From IMG/VR virus record IMGVR_UViG_3300037067_002734, positions 29,886-93,885 of that record: 64,000 nt of DNA; one strand, written 5' to 3'. This document shows, in pieces, positions 8,345-52,370 of the stretch. The stretch's first letter is position 1; every line of letters starts with the position of its first letter. This DNA comes from a virus (Duplodnaviria; Caudoviricetes). The notes under the pieces are model-generated. The model searched no databases, was not told the DNA's origin, and saw nothing but the letters and a program-made list of their open reading frames with translations. Both the position numbers and the translations under genes were made by a program.

Positions 8345-8773
8345 ATGAATAATTTTCAATTAGATTTGTTTAATAAAGTCAAAGAAATAAGAGGCGAATA
8401 TAGACATACAGAAAACTCAAAAGAAATATATGGTATTCTTTCTGTTTTACTACATAATTTAGCTGGTCTTATTGTTGATATTGATGATGAAGGTTCTTCA
8501 ATAGAAGATTTATATCCGTTATTATTACAGATTGCTGCCGAATGTCAATATGGATGCGAACAAATAAAATTAACTGAACCACAATTAGAACAAGAACAAC
8601 AAGATACATTATATAAAAAGAAATATGAACAAGCCCATAAAATGTTGGAAACGATATATTCAACTATCCATAATTCATCTCCATATTATCATATTATCCA
8701 AAAAGGACAATCTCCGACTAGATATTATGAAATAAGTAATGATTTATTACATATGATGAAAGATGCAATATGA
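8345..8773 (+). CDS. hypothetical protein
   Basis: ORF coupled (ATGA) to dnaE-N. Confidence 0.7.
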   Translation: MNNFQLDLFNKVKEIRGEYRHTENSKEIYGILSVLLHNLAGLIVDIDDEGSSIEDLYPLLLQIAAECQYGCEQIKLTEPQLEQEQQDTLYKKKYEQAHKMLETIYSTIHNSSPYYHIIQKGQSPTRYYEISNDLLHMMKDAI

Positions 8774-10698
8774 CATATATTGCCCTTCACTGCCATTCTG
8801 CATTCAGTATTTTAGATGGCCTTTCAAAATGTAAGGATATAGCAAAAAGATGTGTTGAACTGAACTTATCAGCTTGTGCTTTAACTGACCACGGAAATAT
8901 TTGTGGTGCTATTAAGTTTTCAGAAGAATTAAAAAAGAAGGGTATAAAACCTATTTTGGGTTGTGAATTATATATTTGCGAACACCACTCCTCAATTCAA
9001 TCTGATGCCAATTCTGATTTACAACATTTAGTAGTATTAGCAAAAAATCTTACTGGATATAAAGATTTATTGAAAATTATTTCTAAATCCAATTCAAAAG
9101 ATTCTTTCTATAAAAAACCACGACTTTCATTACAAGAATTGAAAGAATTAAATAGTGGTAATCTAATAGGAATTAGTGGGCATTTAGGTTCACATATGTC
9201 CACCTGCATGTTCGATAATATTAAAGATGTGGCTAATTTAAAGGATTTATCAGAAATTAGATTACATCTAAAAAAACCAATTGACCAAATATTAACTGAA
9301 CAAGCCAACATATTAATTGATATTTTTGGAAAAGATAACTTCTTTTTAGAAATTCAATTAATCGATCAAGATAATCTTCCTATTAATAAGGTTATAGCTG
9401 CTGGGCTCCGCTATATTGGTAAAAAATTAAATATTCCTAGAGTAGCAACTCCCGATGCCCACTACTGTAAAAAAGAAGATGCTATAGACCAAAGATTATT
9501 ATTATGTAATAATTTTCGTACCACAATCACAGAAGTATATTCTAAAATAAAGTCTGGAGAAAAAACTCCCCTAACCTCCTTTTTTAATTCTTCAAATTAT
9601 CATATTCCATCTTTTGAAGAGATAAGTTTAGTTAATACAAAAGATGAAATTGAAAATACTTTAAAGATTGGGGAGATGTGCGAAGAATACGATATTACTT
9701 TACCCCCAAGTATTCCATTATTCAAGAAAACTAATGGACTTAGTGCTATAGAATATTTAAGACAGGAAATAAAAAGGGGATTTGAAAATAAAAAATCTAA
9801 AATAGAAGAAGTATGCAAAAGAAAAAATCTTACTATTGATGATTATCGCAAAAGATATAAATATGAAGAATCTATTATTATTAATGCTGAAAATAATCTA
9901 GAACATTATTTTTTAATTGTGCAAGATATTGTTAAATTTGCTAAAAATAGTGGACAAATGGTAGGTTGTGGCAGAGGTAGTGCTGGGGGATGTTTATTAT
10001 CTTATTTATTAGATATAACAGATGTTGATCCCCTCGAATACAATTTATTATTTGAAAGATTTTATAATAGTAGTAGAAAAAAATCTTTACCAGATATTGA
10101 TGTTGATTTTGAAGCTGGCAAACGCAACTTAATTATTGATTATATTAAACAAACATATGGAGAAGATTATGTAATTAGAATTGCAACATTTGGACAAATG
10201 AAGTGTAAAGTAGCTCTTAAAGATGTCCTTCGTAATAACAATATTGATTTTAATATAGCTAACGAAATAACCAAGCATCTTGTAGATGAAGCTAAAATAT
10301 CAGATCAATTACAAGAAATACATGATGAAGGAGATGATGATTACACCGCATTAGATTGGAATGTTGATTATAATGATAAAATTAAACCTTATTGTTATAG
10401 AAATGATGATGGAACATTAGGAGGTGATTATGCTCAACATTTTGAACAAGCAATACGACTAAATGAATGTATTAGAAATGTTGGTGTTCATTCGTGTGGT
10501 GTTGCAATATCAAATATTCCAATCAAAGAAGTATGTCCAATGATTAGAGCTAAAGATGGGAATTTAGTTGCTGGATATGGCAAAGATATAGAACAAGTGT
10601 CTCTTGTAAAAATGGATATTTTATCATTAAATACCTTAGATAAATTACATATTGTCACAGATTTAATTAATGAAAGAGAAAAAAATGAAACTATATAA
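8770..10698 (+). CDS. dnaE: DNA polymerase III alpha, N-terminal subunit (PHP + palm/thumb)
   Basis: LHCHSAFSILDG, ALTDHG, KPILGCE, TPDAHY, GRGSAGG, FERF, PDIDVDF, HSCGV and KMDILSL; ends right after the third catalytic Asp motif. Confidence 0.95.
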   Translation: MTYIALHCHSAFSILDGLSKCKDIAKRCVELNLSACALTDHGNICGAIKFSEELKKKGIKPILGCELYICEHHSSIQSDANSDLQHLVVLAKNLTGYKDLLKIISKSNSKDSFYKKPRLSLQELKELNSGNLIGISGHLGSHMSTCMFDNIKDVANLKDLSEIRLHLKKPIDQILTEQANILIDIFGKDNFFLEIQLIDQDNLPINKVIAAGLRYIGKKLNIPRVATPDAHYCKKEDAIDQRLLLCNNFRTTITEVYSKIKSGEKTPLTSFFNSSNYHIPSFEEISLVNTKDEIENTLKIGEMCEEYDITLPPSIPLFKKTNGLSAIEYLRQEIKRGFENKKSKIEEVCKRKNLTIDDYRKRYKYEESIIINAENNLEHYFLIVQDIVKFAKNSGQMVGCGRGSAGGCLLSYLLDITDVDPLEYNLLFERFYNSSRKKSLPDIDVDFEAGKRNLIIDYIKQTYGEDYVIRIATFGQMKCKVALKDVLRNNNIDFNIANEITKHLVDEAKISDQLQEIHDEGDDDYTALDWNVDYNDKIKPYCYRNDDGTLGGDYAQHFEQAIRLNECIRNVGVHSCGVAISNIPIKEVCPMIRAKDGNLVAGYGKDIEQVSLVKMDILSLNTLDKLHIVTDLINEREKNETI

Positions 10699-10870
10699 AA
10701 GTATTATACAGAATATAATATCAAATAATTTTGATGAGATTTATTTACCAGATACAACAAAAGAAGGTGATAAAATCATTATTAAAAAACCTGATTCATC
10801 ACAAGTATTTAATGTTAGGGCTATATTAGCAGATGAAAGTGTGATTGTGGGAGAAGATAATGAACAATAA
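10685..10870 (+). CDS. small hypothetical protein
   Basis: ORF overlapping both neighbours. Confidence 0.6.
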   Translation: MKLYKSIIQNIISNNFDEIYLPDTTKEGDKIIIKKPDSSQVFNVRAILADESVIVGEDNEQ

Positions 10871-11513
10871 TTATTTATGTGTATATGATTTTGAGACATC
10901 TTCTCCTAAACCATTATCTACCCAAATCTTACAAATTGGTGCTGCAATAATACACCCCAAATCATTTGATATAGTAGCTGAATTTAATGCAGTAGCTAAA
11001 TATGAAAATTGGGATCAAGTTGAATCTAAAGCATTAGAAGTTAATCATTTAACTAAGGAACAATTAGATAAAGCCCCTGATATTAAAATAGTATTCGCAG
11101 ATTTTGTTAGTTTTGTGCAAAAATATAATATTGGAAATAATAGTTGGGGATATCCTATTCCATGTGGTCAAAATATAGGAAACTTTGATAGTATAATATT
11201 AGATAGATATTGTCAAAGGTTTAAGGTATGGAATAATAAAGAAGAGCGAAATAAGTTATTTCATCCATTTTTATCAATAGATACTGCATGTTTATTCTTT
11301 GGATGGTTCGAAAATGAAAAAGAACCTAGAACATTAGGACAAGTTGCGGTAGCAAAACATTTAGGTATAACAGAAGAACAATTAAACAAAGCCCACAATG
11401 CCATTGAAGATGTAAGAATAAATGCCCAAATATTAATTAGATTTCTCAAATTCCAGCGTAATATAATGAATAGTTATAGGGATAAAATTAAAGGATGTTT
11501 TAATGATTCATAA
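10860..11513 (+). CDS. DEDDh 3'-5' exonuclease (DnaQ/epsilon-like)
   Basis: ExoI VYDFETS, ExoII GQNIGNFD, IDT, ExoIII AHNAIEDV. Confidence 0.9.
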   Translation: MNNNYLCVYDFETSSPKPLSTQILQIGAAIIHPKSFDIVAEFNAVAKYENWDQVESKALEVNHLTKEQLDKAPDIKIVFADFVSFVQKYNIGNNSWGYPIPCGQNIGNFDSIILDRYCQRFKVWNNKEERNKLFHPFLSIDTACLFFGWFENEKEPRTLGQVAVAKHLGITEEQLNKAHNAIEDVRINAQILIRFLKFQRNIMNSYRDKIKGCFNDS

Positions 11514-13994: not shown

Positions 13995-14243
13995 ATGAAT
14001 AAATATCAATTAGCATCAATTTTACTATCATATGAAATAGATGAACCCCATTTTGGAGAAAAATGGAATTATAGTCCATTTTTACCATCTCAAATACAAG
14101 ATTGGGAAAAAGAAGAGCATTGTGGAGATTGTACTCACGAACCTCAACCGTGTACTAAATGTTTGATTGATGAATTATTATATAAAGCAGAATGGTTAAT
14201 AAATCATTTAGAACAAATGGGATATAAAATAAATAATGTTTAA
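13995..14243 (+). CDS. small Cys-containing hypothetical protein
   Basis: HCGDCTHEPQPCTKC. Confidence 0.65.
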   Translation: MNKYQLASILLSYEIDEPHFGEKWNYSPFLPSQIQDWEKEEHCGDCTHEPQPCTKCLIDELLYKAEWLINHLEQMGYKINNV

Positions 14244-15807
14244 TATAGATAATATTCCTTTAAATGATATTGAAGTATATAAGAATATTTATCACAAAGG
14301 AAATTGTTTTGGTATTTTTCAATGTGATTCTAGTATTGGCATTAGAACATGCAAAAGATTTCAACCGTCAAATATTTTAGAAATTTCTCTTGTAATATCT
14401 ATAGTAAGACCAGGAGTATTGCGTTTTTATGTTGGTGATAAATCTATGACAGATATTATAATAGAGCGTAAACATGGAATAGAAAAAATAGAGTATTTAC
14501 ATCCAGCACTTGAGCCAATATTAAAATCTACATATGGAGTAATAGTTTATCAAGAACAAGCAATACAAATAGCACAACAAATAGCAGGTTTTACACCACT
14601 AGAAGCTGATAATCTAAGGCGAGCAATAGGAAAAAAATTATCACATTTAATGTCACAAATTGAAAATCAATTTATTGAAGGATGTATAAAAACAAATGTA
14701 GTAAATTTAGAAATAGCTAAACAATTATTTGATAATATTAAAGCTAGTCAAAGATATTCTTTCAACTTGAGTCACGGAGTATCTTATAGTATTAATTCAT
14801 ATAAAACAGCATATTGCAAACATTATTATCCATTAGATTTTTTTACTGGATGTTTAAAAACTGCAAATACACATCAAAAACCATTAGAATATGTAAAGCA
14901 GTGTGTATTAGATAGTCGCAATAACAATATAGATATTGTAGTACCAGATATTAGAGATAAACAAATAGACCCTTATATTAAAAATAATAAATATGTAAGT
15001 TTTGGACTATCAAATATCAAGGGTATTGGAGAGGCGGCAATTAGAGGATTATTTTTAACCCTAGAAACAATAGAAAAATCATTAGATCAATTTAAATGGG
15101 TTGACTTTTTATTCTTATTATCTGGAAAGATTAGTTCTGACGTTCTTGAAGGATTAATTTATAGCGGAGCCCTAGATTATTTTAAGAAAACTCGCTCTGC
15201 TATGTTTTTTGAATTAGAAAAATGGCATATGCTAACTAAAGGAGAAAAAGCGTGGATAATAAAGCATCACTCTACCTCTCCTTTTAATTCATTATTAGAT
15301 GCCGTTGCTTGTGTGGCGGCTACAAAAAAGAACGGTGGTGGATGTCATACACAGAAAAAAGCTGATTTTTGCCTTGGTTTAGCGGAAAGTATTAAAAATC
15401 CTACAATTAATATAAATGATAGTCCATATTTTATTAGTATGATGGAGGAAAAATACTTAGGATGCGGTATTTCATGTGTAAAACACGATGGAACATCTCT
15501 TAATGAATTAGCTAATTATACTTGTGAACAAATTAATAAGGGTTGTGGATCAACCAATATTAGTTTAGCAATAGAAATTGTTAGATTTAAAGAACATAAA
15601 ATTAAAAAGGGAAATAGTTCTGGTAAATATATGGCGTTTTTAGATGTTTTTGATAAAAGTGGACTACTTTCAGAATCTGTGGTTGTATTTGCTGAAAAAT
15701 GGGAAGAAATAAGAGATCAATTTGATGAAAAAGGAGCATATTTTATAGTATGTAATAGATCAAAGAAAAATTCATTAATTGTTGAAAATATTCAAAAAAT
15801 TTGTTAA
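14236..15807 (+). CDS. dnaE: DNA polymerase III alpha, C-terminal subunit (fingers, HhH, OB)
   Basis: IPLND..GIFQCDS, SIVRPG, LKSTYGVIVYQEQ, ADNLRRAIGKK, YSFNLSHGVSY, FGLSNIKGIG, GKYMAFLDVFD OB fold. Confidence 0.95.
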   Translation: MFNIDNIPLNDIEVYKNIYHKGNCFGIFQCDSSIGIRTCKRFQPSNILEISLVISIVRPGVLRFYVGDKSMTDIIIERKHGIEKIEYLHPALEPILKSTYGVIVYQEQAIQIAQQIAGFTPLEADNLRRAIGKKLSHLMSQIENQFIEGCIKTNVVNLEIAKQLFDNIKASQRYSFNLSHGVSYSINSYKTAYCKHYYPLDFFTGCLKTANTHQKPLEYVKQCVLDSRNNNIDIVVPDIRDKQIDPYIKNNKYVSFGLSNIKGIGEAAIRGLFLTLETIEKSLDQFKWVDFLFLLSGKISSDVLEGLIYSGALDYFKKTRSAMFFELEKWHMLTKGEKAWIIKHHSTSPFNSLLDAVACVAATKKNGGGCHTQKKADFCLGLAESIKNPTININDSPYFISMMEEKYLGCGISCVKHDGTSLNELANYTCEQINKGCGSTNISLAIEIVRFKEHKIKKGNSSGKYMAFLDVFDKSGLLSESVVVFAEKWEEIRDQFDEKGAYFIVCNRSKKNSLIVENIQKIC

Positions 15808-23946: not shown

Positions 23947-23982
23947 TTGATAATTCTCTAAAAAATCGTATAATATATTAGG
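23947..23982 (+). promoter_or_regulatory. promoter, copy 1 of motif ATCGTATAATATATTAGGA
   Basis: TATAAT at 23969-23974, possible -35 TTGATA at 23947-23952; 19-nt identity with 49416-49434. Confidence 0.7.
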
Positions 23983-24078
23983 AAAAGATATTATGAATCA
24001 TATATTACAACCAAATATTACCCGAACGGTTAGATTCTATTCATAGTGTCTTTTCCCAACCGTCTCGGGTATTTTTTT
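23981..24078 (+). ncRNA. putative structured leader/small RNA, copy 1 (interleaved helices + U-tract)
   Basis: 23981-23998 pairs with 24039-24056 (18 bp, 2 G-U); 24019-24031 pairs with 24058-24071 (13 bp, 1 bulge); T7 at 24072-24078; same architecture at 49432-49513. Confidence 0.7.
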
Positions 24079-24089
24079 ATGGATATTAT

Positions 24090-25154
24090 ATGATATGTAA
24101 ACGATGTAAAGAATATATTAACGCTGGAAAAACTCAAATTTGTCTAAATTGTGGGTGCAAAACTAATAATAAAGTAAAAACTTTAGAAGAAGAATTCCCA
24201 GATATAACTAAAGAATGGGATTATTCAAAAAATGAATTATCTCCATCTTTAATAAGTAGTAGAAGTGGTAAGAAGGTTAGTTGGATTGGGAAATGTGGAC
24301 ATCGATGGGAAACCTCTATATCTAATAGGACAACAAAAAATAGCAATTGTCCAATATGTGCTAATCGTACAACTATGCCTGGATATAACGACATTAGAAC
24401 TACACATCCGAATCTTTTAATAGAGTGGGATTATAGTAAAAATATTATAAAACCAACCGAAGTAAGTTTTGGTAGTGATAAAATAAAAATTTGGTGGAAA
24501 TGCTGTAAATGTTCAAATTCATGGTTAGCCACTTCTAACCAAAGAACAAACTTAAAAAGTAATTGTCCATACTGTTCAAATCAAGCAATTATTTATGGAT
24601 ATAATGATTTATTAACAACTCATCCAGATATTGCTAAAGAACTAGCTGATATTGATTTAGCTAAGAGAATTAGTCATGGATATGATAAAAAAGTTTTATT
24701 TAAATGTAAAAAATGCAACTATCAATGGAAAACATTCATTTATTCTAGACTTAGAGGAACAGGGTGTCCAAAATGTAATTTTTCAACATTAGAAATTAAA
24801 ACAAAGAAAATATTAGATAATTTGGGTATTAGTAATGAAACTCAAAAAAGATTTAATATTTGTAAAGATAAACGAGAATTACCATTTGATTTTTATATAC
24901 CACAATATAATGTTTGTATAGAATGTCATGGTATTCAACATTATCCATATAGATATAAAAAATCTTCTTTTTCTAAAACCTCTAGAGGTAAAAAACTTAA
25001 TTTATCTATTATAAAACATCATGATAAAATAAAATATCATTTCTGTAAAAATAATGATATTAAACTAATTAGAATTCCATATTGGAAATATAATAATATA
25101 CAAGACATTTTAATAAAGAAATTAAATCTATATGAAAATACTCTGTCGTCATGA
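24090..25154 (+). CDS. zinc-ribbon-repeat (DUF4379-like, 3 repeats) PD-(D/E)XK endonuclease, homing-endonuclease-like
   Basis: Repeats of THP..EWDYSKN..P..GS..K.WW.C..W....R....CP.C; C-terminal LPFDFYIPQYNVCIECHGIQHY..D.IK..FC..I.LIRIPYW. Confidence 0.8.
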   Translation: MICKRCKEYINAGKTQICLNCGCKTNNKVKTLEEEFPDITKEWDYSKNELSPSLISSRSGKKVSWIGKCGHRWETSISNRTTKNSNCPICANRTTMPGYNDIRTTHPNLLIEWDYSKNIIKPTEVSFGSDKIKIWWKCCKCSNSWLATSNQRTNLKSNCPYCSNQAIIYGYNDLLTTHPDIAKELADIDLAKRISHGYDKKVLFKCKKCNYQWKTFIYSRLRGTGCPKCNFSTLEIKTKKILDNLGISNETQKRFNICKDKRELPFDFYIPQYNVCIECHGIQHYPYRYKKSSFSKTSRGKKLNLSIIKHHDKIKYHFCKNNDIKLIRIPYWKYNNIQDILIKKLNLYENTLSS

Positions 25155-49410: not shown

Positions 49411-49433
49411 AAAATATCGTATAATATATTAGG
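49411..49433 (+). promoter_or_regulatory. promoter, copy 2 of motif ATCGTATAATATATTAGGA
   Basis: TATAAT at 49420-49425; identical core to 23965-23983; no good -35. Confidence 0.68.
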
Positions 49434-49513
49434 ATAAAGTCGCATATAAACAAATATAAATAGCCTCGCGGTTAAAGTCTTGCGACTTTTATCCCAACCG
49501 TTGAGGCTTTTTT
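49432..49513 (+). ncRNA. putative structured leader/small RNA, copy 2
   Basis: 49432-49444 pairs with 49481-49494 (13 bp, 1 bulge); 49462-49473 pairs with 49496-49508 (12 bp, 1 G-U, 1 bulge); T-run to 49513; AGGAG SD at 49518-49522. Confidence 0.7.
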
Positions 49514-49527
49514 ATTTAGGAGTTTTA

Positions 49528-50478
49528 ATGAGGAAAGAGTGGACAAATGAAGAAGAAATAGAATTACAAAATTTGATAAATCAAAATTTAGATCATTTGG
49601 ATATTTCTAAAATATTACAAAGAACTAAAAATAGTATCAATCTAAAATGTTCAGAATTAAGAATCAAATGTAAAAAATATGATATAAATATAGGTTATAA
49701 ACAACAAAATGGATTTTTAGAAATTATAGATTTATTACCAAATTCTAAAGTAAAATGTTTATGTCATAATTGTAATAAATATTGTATTTACGATAGATGT
49801 GATGTTCGTAATTCTAAATATAGAACATGTGGTTGTTTATCTAATAATAAAATATGCCCAATATGTATATCTAAACATAATAAAAGAGTGCAAATTTGTT
49901 CCAAATGTGGTTATAAATTTGATAAAAATTGTAAATCCTTTGCTGAAGAACATAAAGAGTTACTTAAGGAATGGGACTATGAAAAAAATATTATAAATCC
50001 GCATTATATTGTACATAAATCTAAATATAAAATATTTTGGATATGTAAAAAATGTAATAATTCTTGGCAATGTAAAATATCAAATCGTACTCAAGGTAAA
50101 CATGGATGTCCAAAATGTAGCTCAAGTAAAGGTGAAAATTTACTTGAATCCATATTAAACAAATATAATATTGTATATAATAAGGAACAAATATTTGATA
50201 AATGTAAAGATATTAAAAATTTACGATTTGATTTCTATTTACTGGATTATAATTTATGTATAGAATATCAAGGAGAGCAGCATTATAATAATAGATTATC
50301 ATCAAGATATAATGAAGAATTCTTTGCAAATATTCAAAAAAAAGATAATATCAAACGAGATTTTTGTAAAAATAATAATATAAAACTACTTGAAATACCA
50401 TACTGGGAACAGAAGAATATAGAGGATATATTAAAGAAGGAATTAAATATAGATGGCAAAATTACAACCAGGGATTAA
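49528..50478 (+). CDS. HTH + zinc-ribbon PD-(D/E)XK endonuclease, homing-endonuclease-like
   Basis: Likely start ATG 49528; WTNEEE HTH, Cys motifs, one EWDYEKN repeat, SKGE..LRFDFYL..CIEYQGEQHY. Confidence 0.8.
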   Translation: MRKEWTNEEEIELQNLINQNLDHLDISKILQRTKNSINLKCSELRIKCKKYDINIGYKQQNGFLEIIDLLPNSKVKCLCHNCNKYCIYDRCDVRNSKYRTCGCLSNNKICPICISKHNKRVQICSKCGYKFDKNCKSFAEEHKELLKEWDYEKNIINPHYIVHKSKYKIFWICKKCNNSWQCKISNRTQGKHGCPKCSSSKGENLLESILNKYNIVYNKEQIFDKCKDIKNLRFDFYLLDYNLCIEYQGEQHYNNRLSSRYNEEFFANIQKKDNIKRDFCKNNNIKLLEIPYWEQKNIEDILKKELNIDGKITTRD

Positions 50479-51679
50479 TGATTTACAAACTACTCATCCA
50501 GAACTAATACAAGAATGGGATTTTGAGAAGAATACTATTAAACCTACAGAGATAATATTTGGAAGTGGAAAAAGGGTGTGGTTTTTATGTTTAAACCATA
50601 AACATAGTTATTCAACAAGATTATTTGATAAAATTAATAAAAAAATACAATGTCCGATATGTACTGGACACAGAGTATTAATTGGATTTAATGATTTACA
50701 AACTACTCATCCAGAGTTATTAAATGAATGGGATTTTAAGAAAAACACTATAAAACCAACAGAAGTTTCTTATGGTAGTCATAAAAAGATTTGGTGGAAA
50801 TGTAAATTAAATCATTCCTGGATAATGAGTCCTAATAATAGAACATCAATGCCCAATCAAGGTTGCCCATATTGTTCTGGGCGTAGAATACTGATTGGAT
50901 TTAATGATTTAGCCACTACACATCAAGAGTTGTGTGAAGAATGGGATTATGAAAAAAATAAAATCAAACCAACAGAAGTTACACATGGTAGCAATAAAAA
51001 AGTATGGTGGTTATGTAAAACGCACAAGCATAGTTTTATATCATCTATTGGTAATAGAAAAAGTGGTAGAAAATGTCCAATATGTTGTGCTTATGGAAGT
51101 GCTAAAATTATTTTATCGGGATTTAATGATTTACAAACAACGCATCCAATATTATGTGAAGAACTTATTGACGAAATATACAATTCTACACAATTATCAT
51201 CTGGTAGTGATAAAAAAGTAAAATGGAAATGTAAAAAATGTAATTATATATGGAAAGCATCTATTTCATCTAGAGCAGGAAAAGGAAAAAATGGATGCCC
51301 TAAATGTAATTCAAGTAAGGGTGAAATTAATATCTGTCAAATTCTAGATAAATACAACATTAATTATAATAAAGAAAAGACTTTTGATGGATGTGTAGAT
51401 AAAAGAAAATTAAAATTTGATTTCTACCTTTTGGAATATAATCTATGTATTGAATATCAAGGGCTTCAACATTATCCAGAAAAATATAAAAAATCTAAAT
51501 TTTATTCATATTCAACTATACATAATGAAGAATCTTTAAAAAATCTACAAAAACGAGACCAAATCAAGCGTGATTTCTGTCTTAAAGAAAATATTAAACT
51601 AATAGAAATCCCATATTGGGATAAAAACAGAATAGAAGAAATATTAATTAAAGAACTTGATATTCCTTTAATTTCCTAA
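50453..51679 (+). CDS. zinc-ribbon-repeat (4 repeats) PD-(D/E)XK endonuclease
   Basis: Four NDL.TTH..L..E repeats; SKGE..LKFDFYL..CIEYQGLQHY..RDQIKRDFC..IPYW. Confidence 0.82.
   Translation: MAKLQPGINDLQTTHPELIQEWDFEKNTIKPTEIIFGSGKRVWFLCLNHKHSYSTRLFDKINKKIQCPICTGHRVLIGFNDLQTTHPELLNEWDFKKNTIKPTEVSYGSHKKIWWKCKLNHSWIMSPNNRTSMPNQGCPYCSGRRILIGFNDLATTHQELCEEWDYEKNKIKPTEVTHGSNKKVWWLCKTHKHSFISSIGNRKSGRKCPICCAYGSAKIILSGFNDLQTTHPILCEELIDEIYNSTQLSSGSDKKVKWKCKKCNYIWKASISSRAGKGKNGCPKCNSSKGEINICQILDKYNINYNKEKTFDGCVDKRKLKFDFYLLEYNLCIEYQGLQHYPEKYKKSKFYSYSTIHNEESLKNLQKRDQIKRDFCLKENIKLIEIPYWDKNRIEEILIKELDIPLIS
50470..51310 (+). repeat. intragenic tandem repeats of about 200-220 nt (four zinc-ribbon units)
   Basis: TAATGATTTACAAACTACTCATCCAGA near 50476 and 50689; variants near 50902 and 51124. 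Confidence 0.8.
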
Positions 51680-52361
51680 AAATATCACTTATAATTATCT
51701 CTCTTATGCAATCTTTTTCCATATCAAATTCAACCAATCCAATATCAGGAAGTTCAGCCAAGAATTTTGCAAATTTAACTATATCAAATCTTTTTTCTAT
51801 TGGTAAATCAGATTGATTACAATCTCCTTCTAAAATCATTTTTGATTTTCTACCAAAGCGACTTAAAATAAGCATCATTTGTTGGTAAGACACATTTTGA
51901 ACTTCATCTACTATACAAAAAGTGTTATGCATATTAATTCCACGACAAAAAGCAATTGGTAATATTTGTAGTTTTCCTTCTTGAATAAGTTTTTGAACTT
52001 CTCCATTTACAATTCCATATGAAGCAAGTTCGGCAAAAATTGGTTGCATATACGGAAAAAGTTTTGCGGTAGAATCTCCTGGTAAAAAACCTAATGATTC
52101 ACCACACGCTTCTACTGCTGCTCTAATAATTGTTAATTTATCATAATTACCTCTTAATAATTCCTGAGCTCCATACATAACAGCTAATGCAGTTTTTCCA
52201 ACACCACTTCCATTAAGTGCAAATATAATCTTTTTTTCCTTCATTAAGTCAAGATATTTCTTTTGATTGATGGATTTTGGTTTAATTTCCTTCATACCCA
52301 CCCTTTCTATATTTGGAATATCTATTTTAGGAATTTTAGTAGCTCGTGGTTTTTTTGTCAT
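51648..52361 (-). CDS. phoH: PhoH-family ATPase
   Basis: GSGVGKT, RAAVE..ESLGFLPG, PIAFCRG, IVDEVQN, LSRFG..SK, GDCNQSD. Confidence 0.92.
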   Translation of the reverse strand: MTKKPRATKIPKIDIPNIERVGMKEIKPKSINQKKYLDLMKEKKIIFALNGSGVGKTALAVMYGAQELLRGNYDKLTIIRAAVEACGESLGFLPGDSTAKLFPYMQPIFAELASYGIVNGEVQKLIQEGKLQILPIAFCRGINMHNTFCIVDEVQNVSYQQMMLILSRFGRKSKMILEGDCNQSDLPIEKRFDIVKFAKFLAELPDIGLVEFDMEKDCIREIIISDIFRKLKEYQVL

Positions 52362-52370
52362 CACCTTCCT

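Follow-up and report, generated by a model that had tools for sequence, protein, structure and literature searches.

Phages of the T4 family restrain their homing endonuclease genes through promoter choice, internal terminators and hairpins that sequester the ribosome-binding site (RBS) (PMC2988022), and T4-type phages also carry repeated cassettes of a promoter and a stem-loop, the promoter-early stem-loops (PeSLs) (PMC2839356, PMC4122927). Here we describe a leader cassette, built of a promoter, a structured RNA and a terminator, that stands in front of zinc-ribbon nuclease genes in a 64,000-nucleotide (nt) stretch of DNA from an uncultured virus of the Caudoviricetes; this window comprises bases 29886-93885 of the 93,885-base-pair (bp) IMG/VR record IMGVR_UViG_3300037067_002734, whose completeness is estimated at 62%. 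To our knowledge, how free-standing homing endonucleases are made tolerable to the phages that host them has been worked out for only a few T4 genes.

A first-pass annotation of the window had noticed the cassette at two sites (copies 1 and 2) and offered three readings of it: an attenuator in which a helix A:A' opposes a terminator helix B:B', an RNA that acts on the nuclease in the manner of type III toxin-antitoxin (TA) loci, and a guide or scaffold RNA. Among these the attenuator fits best, and we find in addition a third pairing, between the linker and A'. The cassette RNA most likely limits the amount of nuclease made, and we judge the chances about even that it does so as a bistable attenuator dosing transcription into the nuclease gene.

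Results

Eight cassettes share one architecture

Promoter, interleaved helices A and B and U-tract are present at both sites named in the first-pass annotation, in the same order and with the same 7-nt and 1-nt joints (Table 1). The searches described below bring the number of distinct copies to eight, three in this genome (copies 0, 1 and 2) and five in relatives from Logan, JGI and ENA samples. In all eight, a strand A that opens with GGA is followed by an A-rich spacer of 18-25 nt, the 5' strand of B, a linker, the strand A' ending in TCC, and B'. Helix A has 11-18 bp across the copies and helix B 11-13 bp; in 7/8 copies B contains a single bulged base, always at the same place. A spacer of 0-4 nt lies between linker and A', and one joint base (C or A) between A' and B'. 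Every copy ends in a stem with a 6-7-bp GC-rich outer part, followed by 6-9 U, a Shine-Dalgarno (SD) sequence and ATG, and every copy carries the signature of an intrinsic terminator together with an upstream A-tract complementary to the U-tract. The loop of hairpin B by itself measures 21-26 nt, and the hairpin becomes compact only once the third helix, C, forms. The position directly upstream of a zinc-ribbon nuclease gene, noticed for the first two copies, holds for 8/8. So does the A-richness of the spacer, whereas the word CAAATAT that had been reported in it is not kept in the wider family.

At copy 1, A and A' pair as had been described, at 18/18 positions with two G-U pairs. Its B:B' helix has 13 bp and one bulged C at 24064, and the single joint base between A' and B' is a C at 24057. 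In copy 2 one base is bulged in A' and another, T 49502, in B'. The + strand RNA of copy 1 folds at -25.4 kcal/mol (z = -4.1, with 0 shuffles folding as well), and the - strand has z = -2.0.

The fold of the cassette RNA is conserved through compensatory changes. Since MAFFT alignments of the copies were inconsistent with the structure, we counted covariation in an alignment of the eight copies fitted with a covariance model, with A and B written as a pseudoknot. Standard pairs fill 92.7% of 192 cells, against 73.5 ± 2.0% in shuffles; 14 of the 25 pairs change on both sides, such changes occupy 37 cells, and the covariation score is 0.529 vs 0.163. The observed values were reached by 0/500 shuffles on any measure, and sliding the 3' partners by 1-3 columns left pairing at only 36-53%. 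Because the alignment was fitted to helix A, the count leans towards that helix. Helix B, helix C and the comparison of own with cross duplexes serve as controls independent of the fitted model. Helix B, which lies outside that model, has six pairs with double changes, and the mean duplex energy of A with the A' of the same copy is -16.4 kcal/mol, compared with -5.5 kcal/mol for the A' strands of other copies, with 0/56 cross pairs as good. Both helices thus bear out, in the eight-copy alignment, that pairing is kept while the helix sequences differ. The non-Watson-Crick pairs are G-U on the + strand, as also claimed earlier, and these strand-specific pairs, together with the compensatory changes, argue for selection on RNA and not on DNA. 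Between relatives, leader identity (68-77%) exceeds that of the 5' coding part of the nuclease (53-70%) and is similar to that of the upstream gene (60-79%).

Independent confirmation of helix A comes from copy 0, the third full cassette of the same phage (genome 1510-1611, outside the window). It was detected (E = 1.7e-6) with R1, a covariance model holding helix B only, so that its A:A' pairing played no part in the detection. Copy 0 has the same promoter core, and its helix A differs in sequence yet pairs perfectly (12 bp plus one bulge). Its inner B reads CAGAT/ATCTG compared with CGGTT/AACCG, which amounts to two double compensatory changes.

A third pairing competes for the strand A'

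In 5/8 copies the linker has a word of 5-7 nt in common with upper A (TAAAGTC, AAAATCT, AAAGT, AGAAATC or AAAAGTT). This sharing is copy-specific, as only 76/20000 random pairings are as good. Since the linker copies upper A, it is able to pair with the same nucleotides of A', giving helix C, which at 4-7 bp is shorter than helix A. Both helices use A', and A:A' and the full terminator hairpin are therefore mutually exclusive. A duplex-energy control for helix C is weak (own -4.5 vs cross -2.6 kcal/mol, 12/56 cross pairs as good) because the linkers resemble one another, and the word-sharing test is the better evidence.

When A was blocked in constrained folds, all eight copies formed one long irregular hairpin before the U-tract. 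From its base it consists of outer B, the one-base bulge, inner B, a 6-7-nt 3' bulge made of the TCC end of A', and helix C with a small loop, altogether an irregular helix of 18-20 bp. In 7/8 copies the folding energies favour this terminator form over the A:A' form, with a margin of 1.5-10.9 kcal/mol; the exception is copy 1 (+1.4 kcal/mol), with an 18-bp A and a 4-bp C. In the growing transcript, A:A' is the best fold until B' emerges. The cassette accordingly maintains two mutually exclusive pairings, one of which completes a terminator, and the folding models predict that the leader is bistable with A' as the contested strand.

A classical H-type pseudoknot would need both full helices simultaneously and loops long enough to span the opposite stems. 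With a joint of just 1 nt between A' and B' and a helix A of 11-18 bp, steric constraints make such a fold unlikely. A partial form is possible, in which the lower 5-6 bp of A coexist with C and B as a three-way junction, and it would protect both ends of a released RNA. Topologies of the group I intron P3/P7 type or of an HDV-like ribozyme were rejected on inspection, as no P8/P3/P4 equivalents fit the 7-nt and 1-nt joints and no Rfam match was obtained.

The copy 1 leader contains an open reading frame (ORF) of 17 codons, ATG to TAG (window 23993-24046). A leader peptide is ruled out by a check of copies 0-2: copy 0 has a 4-codon ORF only, and the copy 2 leader has no ATG. Not being conserved in those two copies, the ORF of copy 1 is probably due to chance.

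The promoter is shared between copies and present elsewhere

The 19-mer ATCGTATAATATATTAGGA, which the two intergenic regions had been said to share, indeed occurs exactly twice in the window (23965-23983 and 49416-49434), where shuffled sequences give a mean of 0.22 matches at <=3 mismatches. The -10 block is kept in 7/8 copies, within a promoter core (C)GTATA(A/T)TAT, and the exception, copy 6 (contig L397), has only a weak -10, TACCAT. Transcription of copy 1 would start at G 23981, at the GGA 7 nt past the -10.

Outside the window, a copy of the promoter without the leader stands ahead of a non-nuclease gene (genome 18274), and at genome 6083-6170 a 12-bp GC-rich canonical terminator with a T-run is followed by the promoter-like TATAATATTGTAAGG, with a similar -10 at ~6150. 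The latter site has the usual order of terminator and then promoter; the cassettes reverse it and put the promoter first. Both sites suggest that the 19-mer is in part the general promoter type of this phage.

Relatives carry further copies

The copies in relatives were found via homologs of the flanking genes or of the nuclease. The proteins of 372 and 115 amino acids (aa) encoded upstream of copy 2 have homologs of 39-71% identity on short Logan contigs, and contigs L271, L273 and L274 carry the cassette at the syntenic position (R1 E = 3.6e-10, 1.9e-11 and 1.5e-10, respectively). Full-length homologs of nuclease 2 (48-52% identity) yielded two more copies. One of them (L397) is syntenic, with a flanking protein only 36% identical; the other is a single element recovered from a JGI and an ENA sample (L398 and L399). 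Additionally, the 111-123-aa proteins upstream of the cassette in L271, L273 and L274 (Logan SRR33452761, SRR12915195) form one 90% cluster, while their leaders differ in both helices and the nuclease type of L271 differs from that of L273 and L274. This suggests that cassette and nuclease are exchanged faster than the flank.

Direct searches for cassette DNA patterns, exact or degenerate, in viral, metagenome and genome contig collections returned chance matches only, none of them confirmed by models R1 and R2, and a match on contig L186 (E = 0.02) proved to be an ordinary terminator. In blastn of cassette plus nuclease against GenBank phages only the nuclease domain matched. Polymerase relatives at 38-46% identity (L021-L025, G001-G003) have no cassette, and the glycosyltransferase adjacent to copy 1 has no relatives in the viral contig collection.

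The view that the cassette is not a known RNA family is borne out by a gathering-threshold scan of the window with Rfam 15, which gave 0 matches. At E <=10, copies 1 and 2 returned noise only (best 0.059, TD-1, 23.5 bits vs a gathering score of 64.5), and the six other loci returned 0 matches at E <=0.1. The int-alpA model (RF02996) found no candidate in the whole 93.9-kilobase (kb) genome at E <=10 and none in the region scans, and a tRNA-like identity was ruled out, as ARAGORN finds no tRNA in any cassette.

Cassette and nuclease move as one unit

On contig L398, cassette and nuclease lie between homologs of two window genes. The upstream homolog (60% identity) corresponds to the final part of the polymerase N-fragment gene, and the downstream one (66%) to the gene starting at 10685. 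In the window these two genes overlap by 14 nt (10685-10698, ATGAAACTATATAA). The insert in L398 is exactly the cassette plus the nuclease, and the last codons and stop of the nuclease recreate the overlap with the downstream start. This presence/absence polymorphism (L398 vs the window) at an otherwise conserved junction indicates that the cassette belongs to a mobile unit, gained as a whole with its promoter, leader, terminator and nuclease, and that the polymerase junction is a hot spot at which endonuclease genes insert. The framing as an RNA-nuclease system in the first-pass annotation is therefore replaced by that of an expression module of a mobile homing-endonuclease unit. At the copy 2 site, a more distant relative (39% identity) apparently lacks an intergenic gap.

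The DNA polymerase itself (phrog_405) is divided over two genes ~3.5 kb apart (window entries 8770-10698, 10685-11513 and 14236-15807), and an exonuclease-subunit-like gene and several small ORFs lie between its two parts.

The nucleases and their setting

Nucleases 1 and 2 contain DUF4379 treble-clef zinc fingers (Pfam) and match the homing-endonuclease families phrog_559, phrog_9084 and phrog_7140 (Table 1). Their identity of 43% is restricted to the C-terminal halves. The nuclease behind copy 0 has another architecture, with CapR-like repeats and a MTES_1575-type nuclease domain; it belongs to phrog_559 and is only ~24% identical to nuclease 2. To judge by PHROG family membership, the products would be free-standing homing endonucleases. 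The start of nuclease 2, which had been placed at 49519, is corrected to the ATG at 49528, preceded by the SD sequence AGGAG at 49518-49522. The sole solved structures matching the DUF4379 fingers of nuclease 1 are trypanosomatid mitoribosomal proteins and assembly factors (mS66, mt-SAF33; E ~5e-4), a hint by analogy that the DUF4379 module may be able to contact RNA.

Nuclease 3 is a paralog without a cassette of its own. A fifth DUF4379 nuclease paralog, again lacking a cassette, lies outside the window (genome 26575-27651; 358 aa, 40% identical to nuclease 1). A tRNA-Met(CAT) gene (genome 26470-26543) is situated 31 nt upstream of it and is itself preceded by the promoter-like GATAATATAAAT, so that at one nuclease gene a tRNA takes the place of the leader cassette. 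ARAGORN found no tRNA genes in the window.

The window has a GC content of 26-34%, and its + strand genes are tightly packed as far as ~51.7 kb. It encodes a DnaB-like helicase, a primase, the polymerase in two genes and many glycosyltransferases. Nuclease 3 and a convergent - strand gene (51648-52364) overlap at their ends (51648-51679), and the copy 2 unit lies at the border of the + strand and - strand gene blocks.

Table 1 Cassette elements of copies 1 and 2 and the nuclease genes behind them (window positions)
Feature	Positions	Strand	Description
Copy 1 promoter	23947-23974	+	-35 TTGATA 23947-23952, 16-nt spacer, -10 TATAAT 23969-23974; consensus scan 11/12
Copy 1 helix A, 5' strand	23981-23998	+	18 nt, opens with GGA at the inferred 5' end; pairs with 24039-24056
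Copy 1 spacer L1	23999-24018	+	A-rich; 3' part complementary to the U-tract
Copy 1 helix B, 5' strand	24019-24031	+	outer 7 nt and inner 6 nt; pairs with 24058-24071
Copy 1 linker	24032-24038	+	AGATTCT; helix C pairing with A' weakest here, 4 bp
Copy 1 A' (helix A, 3' strand)	24039-24056	+	within the loop of hairpin B; ends in TCC
Copy 1 B' and T7	24058-24078	+	B' 24058-24071, T7 24072-24078; intrinsic-terminator signature
Nuclease 1	24090-25154	+	three DUF4379 zinc fingers and C-terminal nuclease domain; Pfam DUF4379 4.4e-41
Copy 2 promoter core	49416-49431	+	-10 TATAAT at 49420-49425
Copy 2 leader RNA	49432-49517	+	A 49432-49443, L1 49444-49461, B 49462-49473, linker 49474-49480
Copy 2 leader, 3' half	49482-49517	+	A' 49482-49494, C 49495, B' 49496-49508, U-tract 49509-49517
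Nuclease 2	49528-50478	+	Myb/HTH-like N-terminus, CapR-like zinc module, DUF4379, nuclease domain
Nuclease 3	50453-51679	+	four DUF4379 units and nuclease domain; overlaps the end of nuclease 2

Discussion

We propose that the cassette is an expression module, which combines a strong promoter of the sigma-70/sigma-A type with a bistable leader of ~90 nt and an intrinsic terminator just before the nuclease RBS. In most transcripts the linker would pair with A', C and B would stack into the long irregular hairpin followed by the U-tract, and transcription would stop, yielding a short RNA and little nuclease mRNA. In the remainder the 5' end of the transcript would capture A', and a rigid 11-18-bp duplex would fill the loop of hairpin B. 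With joints to B of only 1 nt and 7-11 nt at its two sides, this duplex would keep inner B from closing, and RNA polymerase would read into the nuclease gene and the coupled downstream genes. The balance would be set by the relative strengths of the helices, possibly with the help of a trans factor, and a potentially harmful nuclease would be dosed with the downstream genes still supplied. Downstream genes overlap the nuclease stop in copies 0, 1 and 7 (the gene behind nuclease 1 starts at 25132), and no strong + strand promoter within nuclease 1 is among the scan matches listed, which implies that the terminator cannot be absolute and must let some read-through pass.

Several points weigh against such an attenuator. 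Its start site, termination efficiency and read-through are inferred from sequence. No nucleotide of A or A' belongs to B or B', so antitermination would rest on a steric effect, and the main weakness is that B might close its outer 7 bp despite A:A'. No conserved unpaired core suggestive of a ligand pocket and no effector were identified in the eight copies. In addition, there is no correspondence between the relative stability of the two forms and the presence of essential genes downstream, as copies 0 and 7 favour the terminator yet precede coupled genes; a tuning of helix strength to the downstream genes, which copy 1 fits, was rejected on account of these two copies. Among 79 homologous nuclease genes on other viral contigs, 0 have the interleaved element upstream (eight are preceded by a simple terminator), and in the searches made the cassette family is confined to one phage clade.

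The coupling of downstream genes, which requires read-through, weighs against a different proposal, namely that the cassette yields a stable ~90-nt trans-acting small RNA whose 5' end is held by the bulge or loop of the terminator hairpin, and that the nuclease comes from rare read-through. This RNA could bind and restrain the zinc-ribbon nuclease, as an antitoxin-like partner or a cofactor, or could pair with other messages. We consider it rather unlikely, even though a near-consensus promoter combined with a canonical terminator signature and near-constant helix lengths, including those of B with its fixed bulge, would suit it. The bulge of the terminator form moreover stays complementary to the 5'-terminal GGAxx, so both ends could be protected, and the solved DUF4379 domains sit in an RNA-rich mitoribosomal setting, which is a weak lead only. 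Against it, the helix sequences vary freely and the unpaired positions are barely conserved, which is unusual for a protein-binding or seed-bearing RNA, and the nucleases behind the cassettes differ in the architecture of their zinc modules. The layout resembles that of type III TA loci, as the first-pass annotation had remarked, but the features of such loci are missing. TRF detected no array of tandem repeats in the copy 1 and copy 2 RNAs, its sole match (49510-49534, 1.9 copies) lying over the U-tract, SD and start codon of copy 2; nor was a toxin of the ToxN/AbiQ/CptN/TenpN type found, all Pfam, PHROG and PADLOC matches being DUF4379, homing-endonuclease or PD-(D/E)XK-like only. There is in our estimate a slim chance that the terminated RNA binds the DUF4379/CapR-like arrays of its own nuclease and holds it inactive or licenses it. 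If true, this would be a new RNA-nuclease pair on mobile homing-endonuclease units, with a logic like that of type III TA and unrelated to it.

The conserved ends of helix A raise the prospect of a translational mask, in which A', with its TCC end, acts as an anti-Shine-Dalgarno strand on the RBS region of the nuclease and A is a decoy that releases A'. A always opens with GGA, A' always ends in TCC and all the nucleases have a GGA(G) SD sequence. Complementarity of the leader to the SD and start region is clear in copies 1, 6 and 7: in copy 1, A and the region from SD to ATG have GATATTAT in common, in copy 6 they share GGAGCCA, and in copy 7 the duplex of A' with the translation initiation region (TIR) reaches -12 kcal/mol. 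T4 homing endonucleases use RBS-sequestering hairpins (PMC2988022). In the other five copies, by contrast, only generic GGA/TCC triplet matches are seen, and the A'-TIR duplexes are not copy-specific (own mean -6.9 vs cross -5.7 kcal/mol; 1590/20000 permutations as good). We regard the mask as decidedly unlikely; it may also act together with attenuation.

It is very unlikely that the cassette is a genome-level module that involves no switching, such as a portable promoter-terminator insulator, an RNase III-type processing site, an mRNA 5' stabiliser or a PeSL-like repeat that favours recombination and the shuffling of accessory genes. Repeated promoter and stem-loop cassettes do flank accessory genes in T4-type phages (PMC2839356, PMC4122927), three copies occur in one genome here, and the terminator form presents an 18-20-bp irregular helix and a fully paired 5' end. 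However, the strand-specific G-U pairs and compensatory changes argue for selection at the RNA level, an insulator would have the opposite order of promoter and terminator, and none of these roles needs two conserved competing pairings. Finally, a guide or scaffold RNA that targets the nuclease to a nucleic acid, for which only the placing of a structured RNA next to a nuclease gene speaks, can be given next to no credence, as the variable segments all lie within intramolecular helices and leave no free one to act as a guide, the proteins carry modular DNA-binding arrays of their own and fall into homing-endonuclease PHROGs, and the Rfam scans returned no HEARO/omega-RNA or other match.

Returning to the attenuator, the eight variants, with their two covarying helices and one further pairing in competition, would represent a compact and portable control module that travels with the nuclease into a new site. 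It offers a testable model for a selfish gene that brings its own dosing device, and a possible case of antitermination by stiffening the loop of a terminator and not by sequestering its stem. The cassette RNA is in any case a new RNA family, which could be added to Rfam.

The cassette can be compared with five kinds of described element. Like classical attenuators (Firmicute leaders and riboswitch expression platforms), it has a short leader, a strand (A') common to two mutually exclusive helices, and a terminator with a U-tract. Unlike them, its antiterminator shares nucleotides only with the apical helix C and not with the terminator stem proper, so that any effect on stem B would be steric, and we identified in it neither a conserved core of the aptamer kind nor a leader peptide or known protein-binding site. 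Type III TA loci (ToxIN, CptIN, TenpIN) similarly combine a promoter, a structured RNA, a terminator and a potentially toxic nuclease gene, and in both cases the terminator would set the ratio of RNA to mRNA; the cassette, in contrast, has no tandem repeats or processing sites, and its protein is of the DNA homing-endonuclease type and not a ToxN/AbiQ endoribonuclease. The int-alpA motif (RF02996) is likewise a phage-associated 5' leader motif, of untested function, whose model the cassette does not match.

The remaining two come from T4-type and T4-family phages. PeSLs also are repeated intergenic motifs of a promoter and a stem-loop or terminator that accompany accessory, mobile genes (PMC2839356, PMC4122927). 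They differ in being short, in having a stem-loop that overlaps or adjoins the promoter boxes, and in acting on upstream transcription, whereas in the cassette the promoter is followed by a transcribed RNA of ~90 nt whose two interleaved helices covary. The T4-family homing-endonuclease genes (I-TevI/II/III, segB, mobE and segF; PMC2988022) share with our locus the use of own promoters and RNA structures, and of intrinsic terminators that lower transcripts, with expression kept low and the neighbours supplied. In T4, however, the hairpin sequesters the RBS with a late promoter inside it, or the terminator lies within the coding region, while the cassette is a complete promoter-leader-terminator unit ahead of the RBS, its 5' end pairing with the terminator loop in competition with the linker, and there is no relation in sequence or family. 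We thus conclude that the cassette is a putative regulatory leader of phage homing-endonuclease genes that would serve the same end as the T4 and PeSL elements with a different, sequence-unrelated build.

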